A stretch of DNA of 64,000 nt from Bacteroidales bacterium (lineage in GTDB: Bacteria; Bacteroidota; Bacteroidia; Bacteroidales; VadinHA17). The DNA lies in assembly GCA_011620595.1 (NCBI GenBank), contig WOYX01000009.1, positions 2,069 to 66,068 of the forward strand, in the 5' to 3' direction. The notes under the pieces were generated by a model that saw only the letters and a list, made by a program, of their open reading frames with translations, searched no databases and was not told the DNA's origin. The position numbers and the translations under genes were made by a program. The first letter of the stretch is position 1; the number at the start of each line of letters is the position of its first letter. Shown in pieces: positions 1,321-9,329 of this stretch.

Positions 1321-4300
1321 ATGAGTATATATGCCAGTGCAGTAAGGAGACCCGTAACCACCATCCTGATCTTCGTCATCACGATAGTCATAGGGCTTTA
1401 TTCCCTGACACAGCTGCCAATCGACCTCTTCCCTGAGGTTGAGCTCCCCTACCTGTCGGTTTTTACCAGCTACCCGGGTGCCAGTGCGGCAGATATTGAA
1501 ACGAATATAACCCGTCCCCTGGAGGACGCCCTCAACTCTGTCACAGATCTGAAGGAGATAACTTCCCGGTCCAGCGATAACATTTCGGTCATTTTTATGG
1601 AATTTGAATACGAAACTAACCTGGATGAGGCATCGAATGATGTGAGGAGTTCTCTTTCCTTGATCCAGAGCTTCCTTCCTGAAGATGCCGAGGACCCGAC
1701 AATCCTCAAGTTCAACTCGAGCATGATGCCTATCATCTTCTATGCCATCACCGCGGAGGAGAGCTACAGGGGACTTGAGAAGATACTTGACGAGAAACTG
1801 GTCAACCCTCTGAACCGCATCGACGGAGTGGGTAACGTTGTACTGGCAGGAGTACCGGGGAGAGAGATCTATGTTGAGGTAGACCCGCGGCGCATGGAAG
1901 CCTATAATCTTACCATAGAGCAGATAGGTAATGTGCTAAGGGCTGAGAACCTGAACATGCCCGTTGGATACCTGGAGATGGGAAGGATGGACTACCCGAT
2001 CAGGATCCAGGGCGAGTTTGCCGAAAGTAACCAGATTGCAGATGTAATCGTAGGCAACTATAACGGCAACAATGTTTTCCTGAGAGACGTCGCCACGGTC
2101 AATGACACAATCAGGGAGACCAAACTGGTGTCAAAAATCGACGGCAGCCAGGGAATGACCCTCTTCGTGATGAAGATGTCAGGTGCCAACAGTGTTCAGA
2201 TATGCCATGAGGTGGACAGAGAGATTAATAGGCTTCAGAAGAATCTGCCTCCGGATATCGGCATCAAAAAAATAATGGATACCTCAGAGTTCATCCAGGG
2301 ATCCATCAACAACCTGACTGAGACTCTGATGTATGCCGGGATCTTTGTGGTACTGGTGGTCCTCTTCTTCCTCGGCAGGTGGCGCGCGACGCTCATCGTC
2401 ATCCTTACAATACCCATATCGCTGCTGGTGGCCTTCATTTATATCTTCCTGACGGGAAGCTCAGTCAACGTCATCTCGCTTTCGTCACTCTCAATTGCCA
2501 TCGGCATGGTGGTTGATGACGCAATTGTGGTGCTCGAGAATATCACCAAGCATATAGAGCGCGGCAGCCGCCCGCGTGAGGCAGCAATCTACGCAAGCAA
2601 TGAGGTGTGGCTGGCAGTAATTGTCACTACCCTTACGGTTGTGGCGGTGTTCCTTCCCCTGACCTTCGTCAGTGGACTCACGGGAGTGCTCTTTGCACAG
2701 CTTGGGTGGATCGTTTCCATAACGATAATCACGTCAACCCTGGCCGCCATCACCCTTACTCCGACTCTCAGCTCACTGCTGCTCCGGGTCAGACCGATAA
2801 AGGAGAATGCCCCGCTCTGGACATGGGACGGTTCGATTCACAAGTTCCTGAAGTGGCTTGACGAATTTTATGTGAAGACCCTATCATGGGTGCTTTATCA
2901 CAAGAAATTCGTGATCGCTGTTGCAATTGTGATATTTGCAGGGTCCATGTTCCTGTTTAAATTTATCGGCACGGAATTCATGCCTGCTGCCGATGAGTCA
3001 CGGGTGTCTGCTACTGTCGAACTTCAGACCGGCACCAGGGTGACAGAAACGGAAAAGGTTGCTGACAGGATCGATTCAATCGTCAGGGCACAGATACCTG
3101 AAATTAAACTTGTTTCGATGTCCGTTGGTACCGATGACAACGGAGGGGTATCCTCGCTCTTCAGCCAGGGCGGTACCCATGTGGCAACATACACCTTTGC
3201 CCTTCTTGACGTGGGAGATAGAGACAAATCGGCTGAGGAGGTGGCCGAGGAGATACGCCGGATCATTGCCCCGATGCCCGAGGTGATTAACTTCTCGGTG
3301 CTGGCCGATGCCGGCGGTATGGGAGCCATGGGCGGAGGCAACACTGTTGACATTGAGATATACGGCTTCGACATAGCCCAGACGAACCTGCTGGCTGAAC
3401 AGTTGGCTGAAAGGGTAAAAAAGATCCCCGGTGCAACCAACGTGGATATAAGCCGCGACAAATCCAAACCGGAGCTACAGATCATCCTTGACCCGGACAA
3501 GCTCCTGAGGTACGGACTGACAACCGCGCAGGTGTCGACGATGATCAGGAACCGTGTTGACGGCCTCACCGCCACCCGTCTCCGCCAGTACGGCGATGAG
3601 TATGATGTCATCGTCAGATACAAGGAGTCGGCGCGAAACTCTATCACGGAAGTGCAGAACATTGGAGTGGCGCTTCCTTCAGGTCAGGTCATAAGGCTGG
3701 GTGAGATAGCGCAGGTCAGGGAATTCTGGTCTCCGCCCACTATAGAGCGAAAACGCAAGGAGCGCATCGTGACTGTGTCAGTGACTCCCTACAAGAGGGC
3801 GCTGAACCTTATCGTGGCTGACATCCAGAAGGAGCTTGACAGCCTGACTATCCCCTCCGGTGTGATGGTTGAGATATCAGGAGCCTTTGAAGATATGACA
3901 GAATCATTCATAGACATAGGGTTGCTGATGGTCGTTTCGCTGATACTGGTATACCTGGTAATGGCATCACAGTTTGAGTCGCTGAAGATGCCTGTGATCA
4001 TCATGCTCGCGATACCGTTTGCCTTCTCGGGAGTCGCTATAGCGCTCTTCCTGACCGGTACCAAGCTCAGTCTTATCGCCGGCATTGGCGCAATAATGCT
4101 GATAGGTATCGTGGTGAAGAATGCCATTGTACTGGTTGACTTCACCAACCTCACCCGAGACAGGGGTGTGGAGCTCTACCAGGCAGTGCTTGACTCGGGC
4201 CGTTCAAGGCTGAGACCTGTGCTGATGACCTCAATGACCACCATTCTGGCGATGCTTCCTCTGGCCATTAATCCCGGCGAAGGATCCGAGTTGTGGCAGC

Positions 4301-4482
4301 CGATGGGTATTGCAATAATAGGAGGACTGGTCTTCTCGACCATCGTAACGATGGTGCTGGTTCCAGTGGGCTATGTGCTCATGGCACGCCATGGCGAGAG
4401 AGATAAAAAACACAAGATGGCATTCAGGGATATGAAGTTTCTGGATGACATAAAGGCTAACCATCAAAATCCGGAAGCATGA
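1321..4482 (+). CDS. Efflux RND transporter permease (AcrB/HAE-like)
   Basis: 1053 aa. The N-terminus AVRRPVTTILIFVITIVIGLYSLTQLPIDLFPEVELP is typical of AcrB-family pumps, with a 12-TM layout and two large periplasmic loops. Confidence 0.95.
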   Translation: MSIYASAVRRPVTTILIFVITIVIGLYSLTQLPIDLFPEVELPYLSVFTSYPGASAADIETNITRPLEDALNSVTDLKEITSRSSDNISVIFMEFEYETNLDEASNDVRSSLSLIQSFLPEDAEDPTILKFNSSMMPIIFYAITAEESYRGLEKILDEKLVNPLNRIDGVGNVVLAGVPGREIYVEVDPRRMEAYNLTIEQIGNVLRAENLNMPVGYLEMGRMDYPIRIQGEFAESNQIADVIVGNYNGNNVFLRDVATVNDTIRETKLVSKIDGSQGMTLFVMKMSGANSVQICHEVDREINRLQKNLPPDIGIKKIMDTSEFIQGSINNLTETLMYAGIFVVLVVLFFLGRWRATLIVILTIPISLLVAFIYIFLTGSSVNVISLSSLSIAIGMVVDDAIVVLENITKHIERGSRPREAAIYASNEVWLAVIVTTLTVVAVFLPLTFVSGLTGVLFAQLGWIVSITIITSTLAAITLTPTLSSLLLRVRPIKENAPLWTWDGSIHKFLKWLDEFYVKTLSWVLYHKKFVIAVAIVIFAGSMFLFKFIGTEFMPAADESRVSATVELQTGTRVTETEKVADRIDSIVRAQIPEIKLVSMSVGTDDNGGVSSLFSQGGTHVATYTFALLDVGDRDKSAEEVAEEIRRIIAPMPEVINFSVLADAGGMGAMGGGNTVDIEIYGFDIAQTNLLAEQLAERVKKIPGATNVDISRDKSKPELQIILDPDKLLRYGLTTAQVSTMIRNRVDGLTATRLRQYGDEYDVIVRYKESARNSITEVQNIGVALPSGQVIRLGEIAQVREFWSPPTIERKRKERIVTVSVTPYKRALNLIVADIQKELDSLTIPSGVMVEISGAFEDMTESFIDIGLLMVVSLILVYLVMASQFESLKMPVIIMLAIPFAFSGVAIALFLTGTKLSLIAGIGAIMLIGIVVKNAIVLVDFTNLTRDRGVELYQAVLDSGRSRLRPVLMTSMTTILAMLPLAINPGEGSELWQPMGIAIIGGLVFSTIVTMVLVPVGYVLMARHGERDKKHKMAFRDMKFLDDIKANHQNPEA

Positions 4483-4546
4483 AACCAACATGTTATTCAA
4501 GCGCATACAAGTATGCAGTTGTTTACCAAACATGTGGGTTCTATTT

Positions 4547-4630
4547 GACCAATGAAACTTACATGAGCAATAACTCGCAAAAAACAAAGATTATATACTG
4601 CATGTAAGTTCCATTCGACCAATAAGATAA
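4547..4630 (+). promoter_or_regulatory. Conserved inverted-repeat element, copy A (arms ATGAAACTTACATGAGC and ATGTAAGTTCCATTCGACCAATAAGATAA)
   Basis: Arm 1 at 4552-4568 is 17/17 identical to 7315-7331. Arm 2 at 4602-4630 is 27/29 identical to 7366-7394. The arms are complementary in 12 of 13 nt. The arm-to-arm offset is 50 nt here and 51 nt in copy B, while the loops differ in sequence. Confidence 0.6.
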
Positions 4631-4669
4631 TAATCAAATAACCGAATGAAACAATAATAAAATAATCGG

Positions 4670-4963
4670 ATGAAAGCTGTAATGATAATATATAACCTTG
4701 CCCTGACTGAGAAGATTGAGTACGCCCTTGAACAGCTGGGCATCAGGGGCTATACACAGTGGGACAATGTTGAAGGAGTCGGCAGCCTTACCGGGGCGCC
4801 CCACCTCGGCACTCACACCTGGCCAGAGATCAACGGTGTCACCCTCACCTTTGTTGACGAAGAGAAGGTGTCCCAGCTGCTTGAGGCTGTAAAACGCATT
4901 GACGCCATAAACACCGAGGTGGGCATCAGGGCATTCGTCTGGGCGGTGGAGCAGGCAGTGTGA
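4670..4963 (+). CDS. Small P-II/GlnB-like protein of the kind that trails RND efflux operons (transporter-associated, function unknown)
   Basis: 97 aa. MKAVMIIYNLALTEKIEYALEQLGIRGYTQWDNVEGVG shows a beta-alpha-beta P-II-like pattern. It is located 188 nt after the RND gene. Confidence 0.65.
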   Translation: MKAVMIIYNLALTEKIEYALEQLGIRGYTQWDNVEGVGSLTGAPHLGTHTWPEINGVTLTFVDEEKVSQLLEAVKRIDAINTEVGIRAFVWAVEQAV

Positions 4964-5065
4964 AGTCTTTATAAACGGAAATAACTCCGGCCGATTATTT
5001 CATAGCGCCAGGCAGCCTGGGGTATACGTGAAGTCTGAGGCAGCCTGCCGCGACCAATTAAAATT

Positions 5066-5155
5066 AAAGAGTAACGACGCTCCCCGCGGGCTGATGTAAT
5101 TCGCTGAATAATAAGATGTAACGACGTCCCGCAAGGGCGTCGTTACTCTTTAATG
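5066..5155 (+). terminator. Hairpin set with mutually exclusive pairings (terminator-like GNRA hairpin 5118-5151 plus an upstream competing arm 5066-5080)
   Basis: aaagagtaacgacgc (5066-5080) is the perfect reverse complement of gcgtcgttactcttt (5137-5151). A second copy, gtaacgacg-tccc (5118-5130), pairs with the same 3' arm around a gcaa loop. A weak U-tract (tcttt) follows. Confidence 0.4.
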
Positions 5156-5252
5156 CACATTCCCGGCGTTATGTTTTGCAGCATTTTTATTTCCGAAAGG
5201 AATAATTTCTATTTTTATGGCGGAAGAATCACCAATCTTAAAACACAAAATC

Positions 5253-5690
5253 ATGTCGAAATTTATTTCTCTCTTTTCACTGCTCATTTTCCTGGTTTTG
5301 GCAACATCATGCACAAATACCAGGGGAGATCAGAAAGTCACAGCTTCTGAAGCTCCCGTTGCAATAAAATCAGATGCAAAGCTTAACCCCGACCTTGATG
5401 CCAAACTCGGTTCGTGGCTGAAAAAAGATGTTGAGTGCTACGGTATCGTTGTAGGCTATTTTGCTGACGGCAGCACACTGGGTAAATCGGTCAAATGTCG
5501 GGTAGTGGCCATCAAGCCTGACAAGATCAAGATGAAGACCATTGAGAGCGTCAGCCTCCTCCCGGGAGAGGGATGCGACAAGATGGGGCTGGCCTATGGC
5601 GACACCTGGTGGGAGGAAGAGGGAGATATCTTCCGTACCCGCGAAGAGGCAGAAACCTATATCAGGGAGAAGGGCTGGACTGCAAAGTAG
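5253..5690 (+). CDS. Small lipoprotein, function unknown
   Basis: The internal ATG gives MSKFISLFSLLIFLVLATSC, a signal peptide with a lipobox Cys. It sits upstream of the ECF sigma gene on the same strand. Confidence 0.6.
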   Translation: MSKFISLFSLLIFLVLATSCTNTRGDQKVTASEAPVAIKSDAKLNPDLDAKLGSWLKKDVECYGIVVGYFADGSTLGKSVKCRVVAIKPDKIKMKTIESVSLLPGEGCDKMGLAYGDTWWEEEGDIFRTREEAETYIREKGWTAK

Positions 5691-5755
5691 TCTTGGAAAG
5701 CAGCTTTTCATTATGTTAGTTATAATCCCGCTTCTTTATCTGTACACCATCTGGG

Positions 5756-6367
5756 ATGAGTGATCAGGAACTGGTAAAGGCCGTTATCAGGGGAGATAAC
5801 AGTGCCATGCGCGACCTGATATCCAAATATCAGGAGCTGGTGCTGAACACCTGTTATAAGGTCTTACAGTCACGGGAAGATGCCGAGGATATTGCCCAGG
5901 AGGTATTTATAGAGACATACCGCTCCGCTGCGGGTCTGCGGTACGAGGATGACATATCATTCTGGCTATACCGCATCTCACTTAACAAGTCGATAAATCA
6001 CCTCAAGCGATCGCAAAATATACTCTTCCGTTCGCTGATGCAGATAGAGTCTCTCTTCCATCATGATAATGCCAGGAACGTGTTTCCGGAACCGCATTCA
6101 GATGACCATCCGGGCGAAAGCCTGGAAGCAGCCGAGAGGGATGAGATTGTTAAAAAGGCTGTGGCAACCCTGCCGGCAAACCAGCAGAAAGCCTTTATCC
6201 TTTTTTACTACGAGGAGCTTTCCTATAAAGAGATAAGCAACGTGCTGGGACTGTCGGTAGCATCGGTTGAATCACTTCTTTTCCGTGCGCGTGAAAACCT
6301 GAAGAAAAGATGCTGTCCCGACCATCCGAAAAAAAAGGAATCTAAAACTTCAAATCATGATACCTGA
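5756..6367 (+). CDS. ECF (sigma-70 family, group 4) RNA polymerase sigma factor
   Basis: 203 aa. Region 2 is EDAEDIAQEVFIETYR...WLYRISLN. The region 4 HTH is SYKEISNVLGLSVASVESLLFRARENLKK. Confidence 0.9.
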   Translation: MSDQELVKAVIRGDNSAMRDLISKYQELVLNTCYKVLQSREDAEDIAQEVFIETYRSAAGLRYEDDISFWLYRISLNKSINHLKRSQNILFRSLMQIESLFHHDNARNVFPEPHSDDHPGESLEAAERDEIVKKAVATLPANQQKAFILFYYEELSYKEISNVLGLSVASVESLLFRARENLKKRCCPDHPKKKESKTSNHDT

Positions 6368-6881
6368 AAAAACCAACAGGATTTTGCTTTGGTTCAACCT
6401 GATCCTGATCCTGATCATCACATCGGCTGTAGTTACTTTCCTGGTAATGAAAAGCGCGGGTGAGAAGCAAACTAATAACCCGGGAGTGATCAATTCCATG
6501 GACATGCTCCGCAAGGAGCTCAGCCTTACTGATGAACAGTACCGGAAAGTTCTGTTGGAGAATGACCGGACAACCCGGACATACAATATTGTCTTTGACA
6601 TGATGTGCGAGACCAATGTGGCAATGATTGAGGAACTGGCAAAGGAGTATAGTGACCCGGCCGTACTTGACAGCCTCTCCAGGAAGGTGGGAACACTCAG
6701 TGCCTCACTCAGAAGGCACACCACCGACTATTTTATGAACCTGAAAAGCATCTGCAATGAGGATCAGCAAAAAGAGCTTACAGAGATCTTCAAGAGAATG
6801 ATGCAGCTCGATGAATTATGCGAGAGCTGCAACAAGAGAGATTGCCCCAGAAGAGAACGGATCAACAACATCGGAAAATAA
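6357..6881 (+). CDS. Membrane-anchored periplasmic LTXXQ protein (Spy/CpxP/CnrX-like, the periplasmic heavy metal sensor family)
   Basis: 174 aa. It has an N-terminal TM (ILLWFNLILILIITSAVVTFLVM), an LSLTDEQYRKV motif and a helical remainder. It overlaps the sigma stop by 11 nt. Confidence 0.6.
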   Translation: MIPEKTNRILLWFNLILILIITSAVVTFLVMKSAGEKQTNNPGVINSMDMLRKELSLTDEQYRKVLLENDRTTRTYNIVFDMMCETNVAMIEELAKEYSDPAVLDSLSRKVGTLSASLRRHTTDYFMNLKSICNEDQQKELTEIFKRMMQLDELCESCNKRDCPRRERINNIGK

Positions 6882-6957
6882 TTTTCTGTAGTGACCGCAG
6901 GTTTCAGGCTCCTCAATTGTCTTTTTATTGAGCGTTCATATTTATTCAAATCAAATC

Positions 6958-7290
6958 ATGACAGATTATTTTTCTGAGCTTGCCAATAACTATAAAGGCA
7001 AGCGAATAGATGTTCCCGACACATTCGCTGACGATGTCATGTCCAGAATTGAGCGACGGAGGGAGGGGGGATTCAGATCTCTGTCGGTGCCTTCGCGGAT
7101 ACTTCTCTCCACAGTGGTGCTGGCAATTTACTGTTCACTGGGAGTCCTGCTGGGATTAAAGTGCTACAGCGACCTTAAACCTGACGGTAACTCATCTTCC
7201 CACGAGGCCCTGGTTGAACTTATGGACTCACACTACATGAGTACAGACCTTCTTCACGATCCGTTCTTCAGAAATTTTGTCTGTAAATAA
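6958..7290 (+). CDS. Small single-pass membrane protein, putative anti-sigma factor
   Basis: ATG at 6958 (the ORF track starts at a TTG at 6928). It has a cytoplasmic N-terminus and a TM (ILLSTVVLAIYCSLGVLLGL). It is the third gene of the sigma module. Confidence 0.5.
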   Translation: MTDYFSELANNYKGKRIDVPDTFADDVMSRIERRREGGFRSLSVPSRILLSTVVLAIYCSLGVLLGLKCYSDLKPDGNSSSHEALVELMDSHYMSTDLLHDPFFRNFVCK

Positions 7291-7314
7291 TTCATTAATA
7301 CATGACTCAACCGG

Positions 7315-7394
7315 ATGAAACTTACATGAGCTGCAACCAACTACAGGATATGGTCACTTTATTATATGTAAGTTCCATTAGACCAATAAAATAA
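7315..7394 (+). promoter_or_regulatory. Conserved inverted-repeat element, copy B
   Basis: It has the same two arms as copy A (7315-7331 and 7366-7394). It lies in the 119-nt gap before the polyferredoxin gene, and arm 2 ends 15 nt before the ATG at 7410. Confidence 0.6.
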
Positions 7395-7409
7395 GAATTT
7401 ACTAATCTG

Positions 7410-9329
7410 ATGAAAAAGCAAAACTGGTACAAGCTCCTTTATCAATTTGCGATAATTGGTGTTCTCACATTTATGGGCTTCCGTCTGCTCTTTGACAAGG
7501 CTTATGCACCCGACTTCGAGGCTTACTGCCCGTTTGGAGGACTACAGGCACTGGGGAGCTACCTTACCATGGACTCCCTCTCATGCTCCATGACCAGCAC
7601 GCAGATTATGATGGGGGTGGTCCTCTTCATTGGTATAGTGCTCTTCTCCCGGCTCTTCTGCGGATACATATGTCCCCTCGGCACTGTGGGAGAGTGGATA
7701 GGCAAGCTGGGCGACAGGCTGAAAGTGAGAATAACCCCTAAGGGTTTTGTTGACTATGCCCTCCGCCTTCCAAAGTACGTCCTACTCTTTATAACATTCT
7801 ACTTCACCCTGAAGTCGAGTGAGCTTTTCTGCAAGAAGTTTGACCCTTACTATGCCGTTGTCTCCGGCTTTGACAGTGATGTTGTACTGCTGTGGGCTCT
7901 CCTGGCCATCGTTGCACTTGTAGTCGGATCGCTCTTTGTAAGGCTCTTCTGGTGCCGCTATCTGTGCCCCCTGGGAGCCCTGTCGGCGATATTAAAGTTC
8001 TCATGGTGGTTCCTGGGTGTGATGGCACTTTATGTAATACTGATCCTGGTAGGTCTTGATATATCATATGTATACCCGCTCCTGGTAATTACCGCCGGCG
8101 GATATATCCTTGAGGTGACACGGATGAAAAAGGTGTGGCCTGATCCGGTGCATATCACGCGTAACACGGAAACCTGCATTGACTGCGGTCTCTGCTCTGA
8201 AACCTGTCCCCAGGGTATTGACGTGGCACAGATGGAGAAGGTGACCCATACGGACTGCACACTTTGCGGCGACTGTCTCCATGCATGTCCCGAAAAGGAT
8301 ACGCTCCTGATCAACAAAAAGAATATGAAGTGGCTTCCCGCAGTAGTGCTGGGAGCACTTATCATCCTGGGCATTGCCGCAGGCAGCCTGTTCGAGCTGC
8401 CCACCATTGATCAGAAGTGGGGCACCACTGAACAGGTTAAGAGTGCCGGAGTCTTCGAGATGGAAGGATTGAAGAACATCAAGTGCTTTGGCAGCTCTAC
8501 GGCTTTTGCCAACCAGATGCGTAGGCACGAAGGCATCTACGGTGTCTCCACTTTCGTGGCAAACAATAAGGTGCGGGTGCTGTATGACACATCGCTTTAT
8601 GACGACGAGAAGCTGCAGCAGCTTATGTTTGTACCCGTGAAGCGGGTCATCAGACCGGTGACAAATGATGTTGACTCGGTGATACACTACACCCTCACCA
8701 TTGATAAGTTCTTCGATCCCCTAGATGCTACCTATCTGCAGCATCTGCTCAATCAGAAGACTGATGCCTGCGGTTTCCAGACTGAATTTGCCTGCCCGGT
8801 GATAGTGCGAATATACTTCCCGGCAGGGAAAGAGCCCGGCAGAGAAGCCCTGACGGAGGTTATTGAGTCAAAAAACCTGACTTTCACCTCCAATGATAAT
8901 GAGTTTCATGTCAAGCTGCCCTATAAGGTCATTACCTTCGATGAAAAGCCTCTGAAAATGTCAAAGAGAGAATATGCTTCAGCCATGTTCGTTCCGACAA
9001 TCTCACGCTTCAACGGATTCTCAAATTTCTCGGATGATGTTGTCTCTAAATATATCCTCATGATGGGCACAAACTCGTCACACAAGGCCAGGTATACATA
9101 CCTGGTCAGCCACCTCTCAAATGATGACGGCATAATAGCCTTCGAAACCGCCCTGGACTCATTGGGGGCGGAGATGGGTGTGATCCACTACGTTGACACG
9201 GTCACCGCTCCTGACAACATCTATGCGGCTGTCAATGCCGATACCCTTGTCTTCCATTACACTGACGGCCGTACAGGCAAGCTCGCAAATCCCTTCAGCT
9301 TCCCTGATCCCGGCACTGTCAAAAAATAG
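7410..9329 (+). CDS. Integral-membrane polyferredoxin (NapH/NosR/MauN-like 4Fe-4S protein) with a long C-terminal extracytoplasmic extension
   Basis: 639 aa. It carries CPFGG, CGYICPLG and CRYLCPLG motifs and two ferredoxin motifs, CIDCGLCSETCP and CTLCGDCLHACP. These are followed by a TM (LPAVVLGALIILGIAAG) and about 300 aa with three beta-alpha-beta-beta-alpha-beta-like repeats. Confidence 0.85.
   Translation: MKKQNWYKLLYQFAIIGVLTFMGFRLLFDKAYAPDFEAYCPFGGLQALGSYLTMDSLSCSMTSTQIMMGVVLFIGIVLFSRLFCGYICPLGTVGEWIGKLGDRLKVRITPKGFVDYALRLPKYVLLFITFYFTLKSSELFCKKFDPYYAVVSGFDSDVVLLWALLAIVALVVGSLFVRLFWCRYLCPLGALSAILKFSWWFLGVMALYVILILVGLDISYVYPLLVITAGGYILEVTRMKKVWPDPVHITRNTETCIDCGLCSETCPQGIDVAQMEKVTHTDCTLCGDCLHACPEKDTLLINKKNMKWLPAVVLGALIILGIAAGSLFELPTIDQKWGTTEQVKSAGVFEMEGLKNIKCFGSSTAFANQMRRHEGIYGVSTFVANNKVRVLYDTSLYDDEKLQQLMFVPVKRVIRPVTNDVDSVIHYTLTIDKFFDPLDATYLQHLLNQKTDACGFQTEFACPVIVRIYFPAGKEPGREALTEVIESKNLTFTSNDNEFHVKLPYKVITFDEKPLKMSKREYASAMFVPTISRFNGFSNFSDDVVSKYILMMGTNSSHKARYTYLVSHLSNDDGIIAFETALDSLGAEMGVIHYVDTVTAPDNIYAAVNADTLVFHYTDGRTGKLANPFSFPDPGTVKK

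Follow-up and report, generated by a model that had tools for sequence, protein, structure and literature searches.

Neisseria REP2 (CREN) and the IR-A and IR-B repeats of Borrelia plasmids are dispersed repeats of 120–180 nt without terminal inverted repeats (Delihas 2011, PMC3184786; Morelle et al. 2003 as cited there). They are found just upstream of genes, end in the ATG start codon, contain two internal stem-loops and supply the 5′ leader, and their mode of spread and origin are not established (PMC3184786). REP2 carries its own promoter and ribosome-binding site, is present in about 25 copies, marks a contact-regulated gene set and has no demonstrated target (PMC3184786). By behaviour, these repeats are the closest described analogues of the element considered here, which is located at 4547–4630 of a 64,000-nt stretch of a Bacteroidales genome (assembly GCA_011620595.1, contig WOYX01000009.1, positions 2,069 to 66,068, forward strand; below, the window). 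The first-pass annotation described it as a conserved inverted repeat upstream of a gene for a P-II-like protein and of an 8-gene cluster, and read it as a selected hairpin or a paired operator.

The flagged pair, together with an older third copy, in all likelihood represents a small, gene-less, oriented mobile DNA repeat of Bacteroidota, which targets ATGAAA, mostly in Met-Lys start codons. The P-II-like and 8-gene operons are not one regulon through this element: units precede about 70 unrelated genes of the genome, their sites are empty in close relatives, and the copy number within the genus ranges from 0 to 81. Many scattered copies in unrelated contexts, with conserved interiors, form the pattern that the first-pass annotation itself had associated with a MITE/REP-type repeat (miniature inverted-repeat transposable element or repetitive extragenic palindrome).

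As in REP2, the element ends in the ATG of the downstream gene, contains internal stem-loops and has no terminal inverted repeats. Unlike REP2, it has neither a Shine-Dalgarno sequence nor the canonical Bacteroidota −7 box TAnnTTTG (sense strand, 0 of 52 copies in the window's own genome and 0 of 72 in a phylum-wide set; antisense strand, 1 of 52 and 2 of 72), and its transcription must therefore come from upstream. It differs further in its 70–80 or more copies before unrelated genes, a defined ATGAAA target, filled and empty sites, nesting, and an internal strand with complementarity to each end; in sequence the two are not similar, and they come from different phyla. To our knowledge, Bacteroidota use no Shine-Dalgarno sequence. 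No description of the element family was found in the literature, and it is apparently undescribed.

Architecture of the element and its copies in the window

The unit is composed, in this order, of arm 1 (ATGAAAC..CATG), a loop, arm 2 (CATG..GTTCCAT), an A-rich tail and a terminal ATGAAA (4646–4651 and 7410–7415 in the two full copies). Counted through the A-rich tail, it is about 104 nt long, and the initial estimate of ~85 nt was too short. The inserted unit can be written as ATGAAAC-stem-loop-stem-GTTCCAT-NNN-A-rich tail-N′N′N′-ATGAAA, with ATGAAA flanking both sides. Three helices are referred to below: P1 between the two arms, P1a, a small hairpin after arm 1, and P2, in which CAT-NNN straight after GTTC pairs with N′N′N′-ATG at the start codon. 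The central GTTCCAT-NNN has in this way complementarity to either end, with ATGAAAC on the left (P1) and with N′N′N′ATG on the right (P2).

The arm motif ATGWAASTTWCAT, with at most one mismatch, occurs at four sites of the window (4552, 4602, 7315 and 7366) against 0.23 expected, and none of 100 shuffles reached four. The strings quoted in the first-pass annotation are found at their positions, with arms complementary at 12 of 13 nt and spaced by 50 and 51 nt in the two copies. A covariance model trained on 47 genomic copies and run over the window recovers exactly two full copies, at 4549–4651 (100.8 bits) and 7312–7415 (97.2 bits). The description "present twice" is correct in this sense, whereas the genome contains 79 copies and the window a split third one, which was found with the oriented arm pattern (ATGAAAC..CATG for arm 1, CATG..GTTCCAT for arm 2). 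The features are as follows.

4479–4551, forward strand: 5′ part of copy 0, an older copy of the CCAACATG/CATGTGGG subfamily, assigned by the oriented arm pattern
4479–4492 and 4531–4544, forward strand: arm 1 and arm 2 of copy 0, then the first 7 nt of its tail, TTGACCA
4552–4651, forward strand: copy 1, the flagged element, from ATGAAAC to ATGAAA; covariance model match 4549–4651, nhmmer match C16:6619–6720
4552–4565, forward strand: arm 1 of copy 1, ATGAAACTTACATG, including the mini open reading frame ATG AAA CTT ACA TGA
4601–4614, forward strand: arm 2 of copy 1, CATGTAAGTTCCAT, pairing with arm 1 save for the family-wide A·C mismatch (A4555/C4611)
4612–4617, forward strand: 5′ strand of P2 in copy 1, CATTCG ("anti-ATG"), paired with 4643–4648 in the predicted fold
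4643–4648, forward strand: 3′ strand of P2 in copy 1, CGAATG; the ATG at 4646 belongs to the terminal ATGAAA, here a pseudo-start (ATG AAA CAA TAA)
4652–4669, forward strand: remainder of the copy 0 tail, CAATAATAAAATAATCGG, by tail reconstruction; abuts the true start ATG of the P-II-like gene at 4670
7315–7415, forward strand: copy 2, with arm 1 at 7315–7328, arm 2 at 7365–7378 and tail at 7379–7409; covariance model match 7312–7415
7376–7382, forward strand: 5′ strand of P2 in copy 2, CATTAGA, paired with 7406–7412 in the predicted fold
7406–7412, forward strand: 3′ strand of P2 in copy 2, TCTGATG, taking in the start codon of the gene that opens the 8-gene cluster
7410, forward strand: terminal ATGAAA of copy 2, the start of the gene for a NapH-like 4Fe-4S membrane protein, first of the 8-gene cluster

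Copy 1 is nested at an internal ATGAAA in the tail of the older copy 0. When copy 1 is removed in silico, copy 0 becomes a full-length unit of 103 nt, whose tail is identical to the family consensus at 28 of 31 positions. What appears as a 24-nt duplication before the P-II-like gene results from this nesting. The ATGA of copy 0 (4479–4482) includes the TGA stop of the RND pump gene. Many tails hold an internal ATGAAA (..GACCAATGAAATAAT..), and other loci of the genome present the same nesting as well as head-to-tail arrays at terminal ATGAAA sites.

The consensus in the window's own genome (3.08 Mb, 63 contigs; below, G000) is ATGAAACTTRCATGAGCAG.AACTCACAAAAGG..ATGATTAT...TTCATGYAAGTTCCAT, then TCGACCAATRAAATAATAAT.AAATAATCGA, then ATGAAA. 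The loop had been taken as unrelated in sequence between the two copies; across the family it shares the small hairpin, a CACA(A/C)A motif and ATGATTAT, and the conserved unpaired motifs are CACACA and AUGAUUAU. There is no conservation 5′ of arm 1. The mini open reading frame is present in both window copies, yet it is a consequence of ATGAAAC together with CATGA, and other subfamilies do not conserve it as a reading frame. The absence of a named RNA motif is upheld by Rfam 15, as a cmscan search of window positions 4000–8000 on both strands (E ≤ 10) gave three weak unrelated matches and none on the element.

Filled and empty insertion sites

The 13-mer of the arm occurs at 73 sites in G000, compared with 6 for a control pattern. 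These sites are mostly paired, 50–51 nt apart, and their asymmetry is fixed, with ATGAAAC.. in arm 1 and ..GTTCCAT in arm 2. A profile search with nhmmer gives 79 non-overlapping copies, nearly all of them abutting a start codon; in about 50, a long open reading frame (ORF) begins with the terminal ATG, in exact register. The tagged ORFs share no function: they include cysS, gcvP, fhs, ddl, glucokinase, the gamma subunit of a 2-oxoacid oxidoreductase, a biotin carrier protein, purine nucleoside phosphorylase, xylulokinase, gnd, uxaC, lptB, response regulators and many lipoproteins. A co-directional gene precedes 46 copies and 22 are located in divergent gaps; in many copies, the TGA stop of the upstream gene lies inside the ATGA of arm 1. 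One copy (C15:21174–21279) precedes a trpB-like gene, and its terminal ATGAAA opens a short ORF (MKQFTLYVW...), with the gene start 145 nt further; this ORF may be a leader peptide, or the copy may be inserted at a non-start ATGAAA.

Mobility is documented by the comparison of orthologous sites. The P-II site is empty in G041, whose P-II-like protein is 95% identical, and in about 15 other species of the genus (..ggaagcATGAAGGCTGTAATG); in this empty allele, the RND pump stop and the P-II start overlap (ATGA). In G000 and G017 the site is filled, with about 190 extra bases exactly at ATGAA. A separate insertion of a different subfamily (ATGAAACCCACATG...CATGTGAGTTCCAT) is present at the same P-II ATGAAA in G018, whose relatives G015, G016 and G008 have the empty allele. 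At the NapH site the element is present in G000, G017, G041 and G004 and missing in G019, G003 and G014, where only about 22 nt separate the upstream stop from ATGAAAAA. Among 40 copies of G017 compared with G000, 19 sites are filled in both genomes; G000 has a clean empty site for at least 5 others, where the flanks are 81–97% identical. An example of such a pair is cagatATGAAAAAG against cagatATGAAAC...CGGATGAAAAAG, in fuller form cagatATGAAAAAGataaat against cagatATGAAAC[..]CGGATGAAAAAGataaat.

At the NapH site, the copies of G000 and G017 diverge far more than their flanks, and the copy of G017 is a hybrid of a TTACATG arm 1 and a CATGCAAG arm 2. In our own reading of the sequences, the hybrid would have arisen by re-insertion turnover, followed by recombination between adjacent copies.

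The most recent spread is seen in G036, a member of another family with 26 copies. Thirteen copies at 13 loci are identical at 104 of 104 positions, and the identity extends from the A of ATGAAAC to the end of ATGAAA. An in-frame ORF of at least 82 codons follows 4 of them, another copy of the element follows 3, and an ORF of only 2–9 codons follows 5. Therefore, the primary specificity is for the hexamer ATGAAA, and the survivors of insertion are presumably filtered by selection. Several of the identical copies are located within a few hundred bases of contig ends (contigs C225, C72, C287, C360, C367 and others), and three subfamilies occur together in this genome, as mixed tandems. Immunity of sites that start with ATGAAG was also considered, as the empty allele is ATGAAG at 3 of 4 informative polymorphic sites and at the P-II site of G041; this was rejected, since the sites are too few and many empty alleles are ATGAAA.

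The history of the window is as follows. Copy 0, the older one, went into the overlapping RND stop and P-II start (ATGA), copy 1 then went into the ATGAAA within the tail of copy 0, and copy 2 into the start codon of the NapH-like gene. After such an insertion, the gene retains a start codon and has an A-rich leader.

Across the genus, the copy counts are 71 in G000, 81 in G017 and 0–10 in the other 23 sampled species. In the order as a whole, 30 of 201 genomes and 28 of 168 genera are positive, in a count which scored just 19 candidates per genome. The exact pattern ATGAAAC-N4-CATG-N28-45-CATG-N4-GTTCCAT has at least 120 matches among 185,579 species genomes, where about one is expected by chance according to our own arithmetic. 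Among the matches listed are Bacteroidales metagenome-assembled genomes (MAGs), Tannerella, taxa of the Marinilabiliales type, Prolixibacteraceae, Mariniphaga, Sunxiuqinia, Labilibaculum, Chitinophagaceae (Niabella, Niastella, Chitinophaga) and Cyclobacteriaceae; roughly three of those listed lie outside Bacteroidota and look like chance. Cultured carriers among them are Labilibaculum manganireducens 59.10-2M, Niabella ginsengisoli GR10-1, Niastella vici DJ57 and Chitinophaga filiformis ZLX-1. The same pattern has no match in 2.9 million viral contigs; therefore, the element is not phage-borne.

Paired helices and the possible mode of spread

The three predicted helices covary across the phylum, with P2 the strongest. 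P1 is paired at 86% in the G000 copies; its column pair 13/61 is GC in 23 and AU in 19, and one A·C mismatch is invariant. The middle of P1 shows full compensation in other genomes (CACCCATG/CATGGGTG, CCCACATG/CATGTGGG, CCTAGCATG/CATGCTAGG), and in the commonest subfamily it is swapped for an internal loop with tandem G·A, GAGCCATG/CATGGCGA. The stem sequences of the subfamilies are wholly different, with the ends and the pairing retained. The hairpin proposed in the first-pass annotation as a selected structure is borne out by this arm-to-arm covariation. In an unbiased mutual-information scan of 119 sequences, the two variable columns of P2 rank first and second, with column pairs TA 37/CG 32/GC 22/AT 13 and TA 46/CG 44/AT 14. 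At the three variable positions of P2, 288 of 333 pairs are Watson-Crick, in at least 8 types of complementary triplet. P1a also covaries (GC 48/CG 21).

RNAalifold on the G000 copies alone gives a consensus of just 6 bp, because the A·C mismatch interrupts the stem. In the predicted fold of the sense RNA, the inner part of P1 and P2 are formed, the start codon is paired and the AUGA of arm 1 is free; the antisense strand is predicted to fold more stably. One GACTA/TAGAC subfamily hints at the pairing of the loop ATGATTAT with the tail ATAA(T/A)CA, and both segments vary too little to be informative.

The behaviour of the helices at single loci is different from that among subfamilies. When the two subfamily-defining polymorphisms are left aside, P1 of the G000 copies has 1 compensatory double change against about 65 disruptive changes, and P2 has 1 against about 58. 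The orthologous copies of G041 and G004 have decayed. The pairing is kept among the founders of subfamilies and not at single loci, which argues that the fold probably serves propagation, rather than the regulation of the host gene. The hairpins would be retained since mobility needs them.

By analogy, the layout resembles single-strand transposition of the HUH type (IS200/IS605, PATEs, and REPINs, which are hairpin-forming REP doublets) and, to a lesser degree, the recombination of folded attC sites. This likeness is drawn from the asymmetric ends, the strict target which reappears at the far end, the internal guide and the selection on hairpins and not on sequence. A folded single strand, with the central segment guiding both ends, would probably follow the IS200/IS605 logic, and the mobilising enzyme would act in trans. 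A bolder version, possible though rather doubtful, is a guide-directed element: about 100 nt of non-coding DNA, or an RNA copy of it, in which the internal anti-ATG guide would pair with the element's own ends and with the target ATGAAA. Its enzyme would lie outside the transposase families known for small elements, possibly a housekeeping recombinase or a replication-linked activity, and each insertion would deliver a portable translational module that hides and presents the start codon, in a phylum without Shine-Dalgarno initiation. If this is true, bursts of the element would rewire the translation of dozens of genes at once.

Alternative explanations and the neighbouring genes

Two groups of observations weigh against the interpretation as a mobile repeat. 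The first would suit a functional RNA too: the orientation of the copies always matches that of the gene, the strongest covariation involves the start codon, and the internal loop of the commonest subfamily, with its tandem G·A, is purine-rich on the sense strand. The wobble counts give no clear strand, as 75 A·C pairs (G·T on the antisense strand) against 40 G·U pairs, in counts that are phylogenetically non-independent, together with the invariant A·C, lean to the antisense strand, and the sense-strand tandem G·A contradicts this. The second group concerns the enzyme. No linked transposase was found, and G000 has no match to Y1 (PF01797), Y2 (PF04986), the reverse transcriptase domain RVT_1 (PF00078) or IS110 (PF01548). 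In G036, with its recent burst, there is no reverse transcriptase and no IS110, and PF04986 is present only as a fragment; PF01548 and PF04986 are also absent from G017. None of the four families tracks the copy number in 20 genomes, and in G017, G036 and G082 the Y1 genes have other REP-like hairpins, short and GC-rich, on their flanks. No orphan arms that would indicate an autonomous parent occur in G000, and no gene family recurs beside the copies in 120 loci, except for SusC-like receptors and similar. The genomes analysed are mostly MAGs, from which repeated genes tend to drop out, and an absence is weak evidence.

In the main alternative, the element is chiefly an RNA leader that acts in cis, and its spread would be secondary. 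By this scenario, the CAU-NNN of arm 2 masks the NNN-AUG start, and the AUGAAAC of arm 1 is a decoy in competition for that strand. Set by ribosome traffic on the mini open reading frame, by temperature or by a global RNA-binding factor, the leader would work as a two-state translational switch, a thermometer or a device for ribosome landing or shunting. The minimum free energy fold of the sense strand agrees with it, since the AUG is paired in both window copies and in a copy of a distant subfamily (Z-scores −3.9, −1.0 and −3.2). The conserved unpaired CACACA and AUGAUUAU also agree, as does the element's lack of its own promoter, by which it would be read as part of a leader. Nevertheless, we consider such a leader unlikely. 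The tagged genes are without common function, the genus copy number runs from none to 81, close relatives with the same operon have empty sites, and the copies decay uncompensated. In the youngest burst, 5 of the 13 identical copies precede an in-frame ORF of 2–9 codons and 3 precede another copy, and the wobble asymmetry leans antisense.

Still less probable is a known class of repeat, either a DDE-type MITE with terminal inverted repeats or a REPIN or PATE moved by a resident Y1 enzyme (RAYT or IS200/IS605 TnpA). Such classes would fit its small size, its lack of genes, its many copies, its hairpins and its insertion polymorphism, and Y1 is present in 5 of 6 high-copy genomes; in addition, the internal segment complementary to both ends recalls the guide of IS608. 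However, the inverted repeats lie inside the unit, whose termini do not mirror one another as inverted copies, G000 has 71–79 copies without a Y1 gene, Y1 is as common in low-copy genomes (7 of 14), and the inspected Y1 genes are flanked by unrelated REPs. These REP-like hairpins (in G082, G017 and G036) include CCCCGTAGGGG, GTCCCGTACGGGAC and AGCCCTGAAGGGGCG, and the Y1 genes beside them are separate REP/RAYT systems, unrelated to the element. Near Y1 genes, the covariance model gives only one weak match, beside one gene of G082. The near-complete G082 assembly (5 contigs, 4.0 Mb) contains 19 matches to IS110-type transposases and 5 Y1 genes; the element occurs in it at least 19 times.

The individual classes differ in how much they share with the element. 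IS200/IS605 elements, PATEs and the IS608 TnpA system combine asymmetric ends, internal or subterminal hairpins, a short strict target, fixed orientation, guide complementarity and the selection of structure over sequence. The element has the same features, with ATGAAA as its own target and P1, P1a and P2 as its hairpins, and it also lacks terminal inverted repeats. It is unlike them in that no cognate TnpA was found and a single segment would guide both ends; moreover, unlike in IS200/IS605, its 6-nt target is a start codon and reappears at the far end, which looks like a target-site duplication. A PATE would share its ends with an autonomous element coding for TnpA, and none was found by looking for orphan arms in G000 and for recurrent neighbours in the 120 loci, nor does Y1 presence follow the copy number; TnpB was not searched for. 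DDE-type MITEs are likewise small, non-coding and multicopy, and the element has their presence/absence polymorphism and a direct repeat (ATGAAA), whereas its arms are internal and its termini are not inverted copies.

REPs carry GTAG/CGTC tags, are mostly found downstream of genes and have no start-codon register, and a REPIN family flanks its own RAYT gene. The likeness of the element to REPINs and REP-BIMEs consists of a hairpin of about 100 nt formed from two inverted arms, many non-coding copies, compensated subfamilies and a patchy copy number. The difference is that its copies are in start-codon register, that the RAYT-like genes bear other REPs and that G000 has no RAYT-like gene. The attC sites of integrons are imperfect hairpins of 60–140 nt with the boxes RYYYAAC/GTTRRRY, organised in cassette arrays and served by an integrase. 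The outer 7-bp box of the element also ends in AAC/GTT and is followed by an unpaired spacer, an inner box and a variable loop; it too lies just upstream of an ORF and has its structure conserved more than its sequence. In contrast, ATGAAAC/GTTCCAT is off the consensus at 2 positions per box, and the copies are solitary before housekeeping genes, not cassette arrays. Mycobacterial interspersed repetitive units (MIRUs) are oriented repeats of about 50–100 nt within operons, whose small ORFs overlap the upstream stop and the downstream start. The orientation, the location within operons and both overlaps are shared with the element; unlike it, MIRUs are tandem minisatellites without the hairpin/anti-ATG architecture and with no shown hexamer target. 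A retro-element is not indicated either, as reverse transcriptase (PF00078) is absent from both G000 and G036, with the reservation stated above for MAGs. Nor is a derivative of IS110 or IS91 indicated, from the distribution of PF01548 and PF04986 in G000, G017 and G036 given above.

The proposal that the arms are two operators of a dimeric regulator, or promoter elements of an ECF sigma factor, co-regulating the P-II-like gene and the 8-gene uptake cluster, rests on the partial palindrome of each arm (ATGnAAnTTnCAT), the ECF sigma gene between the two copies and GGAAC (antisense), which resembles an ECF −35 box, but it is scarcely credible, as the variable arm position covaries with the opposite arm and not with its own-arm partner, so that palindromy within the arms is not supported, about 70 unrelated genes carry the same arms, relatives with the same operons do not have them, no conserved −10-like element follows either arm when read directly from the window, and the stems differ completely between subfamilies with the ends and pairing kept.

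If the mobile repeat is accepted, the long spacer between the RND pump and P-II-like genes and the leader of the 8-gene cluster are insertion scars, and the false lead of a shared riboregulator or operator is removed. Each copy adds a structured leader in which the start codon is predicted to be paired, and this may plausibly damp or modulate how the P-II-like gene and the 8-gene cluster are translated. On the scale of the phylum, the element splits translationally coupled genes and places a helix that pairs the start codon before up to about 3% of the genes of a genome, which bears on operon evolution and on translation start in bacteria without Shine-Dalgarno pairing. There are practical consequences as well. 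For the annotation of Bacteroidota, it bears on intergenic gaps that are long and "structured", on spurious mini-ORFs and on wrong start calls, and in the assembly of MAGs its identical copies break contigs. The mobilising enzyme, once identified, could reveal a new kind of target recognition by a short programmable guide.

The genes around the copies are those for a CusB/HlyD-type adaptor, the RND pump (1321–4482), the PG0541-family P-II-like protein (4670–4963) and the ECF sigma factor (5756–6367). The cluster which starts at 7410 encodes the NapH-like 4Fe-4S membrane protein, an ABC ATPase, DUF4857, a TonB-dependent receptor, DUF4876, DUF6850 and a HEAT-repeat protein. Within the ECF sigma gene, a weak Rfam match to the flpD RNA (6098–6144; 21.8 bits against a gathering score of 40, E = 0.14) is most likely due to chance. 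Downstream (3′) of the P-II-like gene, a perfect 18-nt inverted repeat (5063–5080/5137–5154) encloses a GTAACGACG..CGTCGTTAC hairpin (5063–5154). Relatives (G005, G015, G016, G018, G022 and others) also have a GC-rich hairpin of this kind after the P-II gene, and then a TAnnTTTG-type box (gatatatttgg) about 25 nt before the NapH-like gene. Judged by their sequence, the hairpin and the box look like the native terminator and promoter of the uptake cluster. The NapH-like cluster comes straight after the P-II gene in most species of the genus. The ECF sigma gene, together with a 174-aa and a 120-aa ORF, is found between the P-II and NapH-like genes (window 5217–7290) in the clade of G000, G017, G041 and G004, and also in G019, G003 and G014; the uptake cluster has therefore gained this sigma module in a lineage-specific manner.

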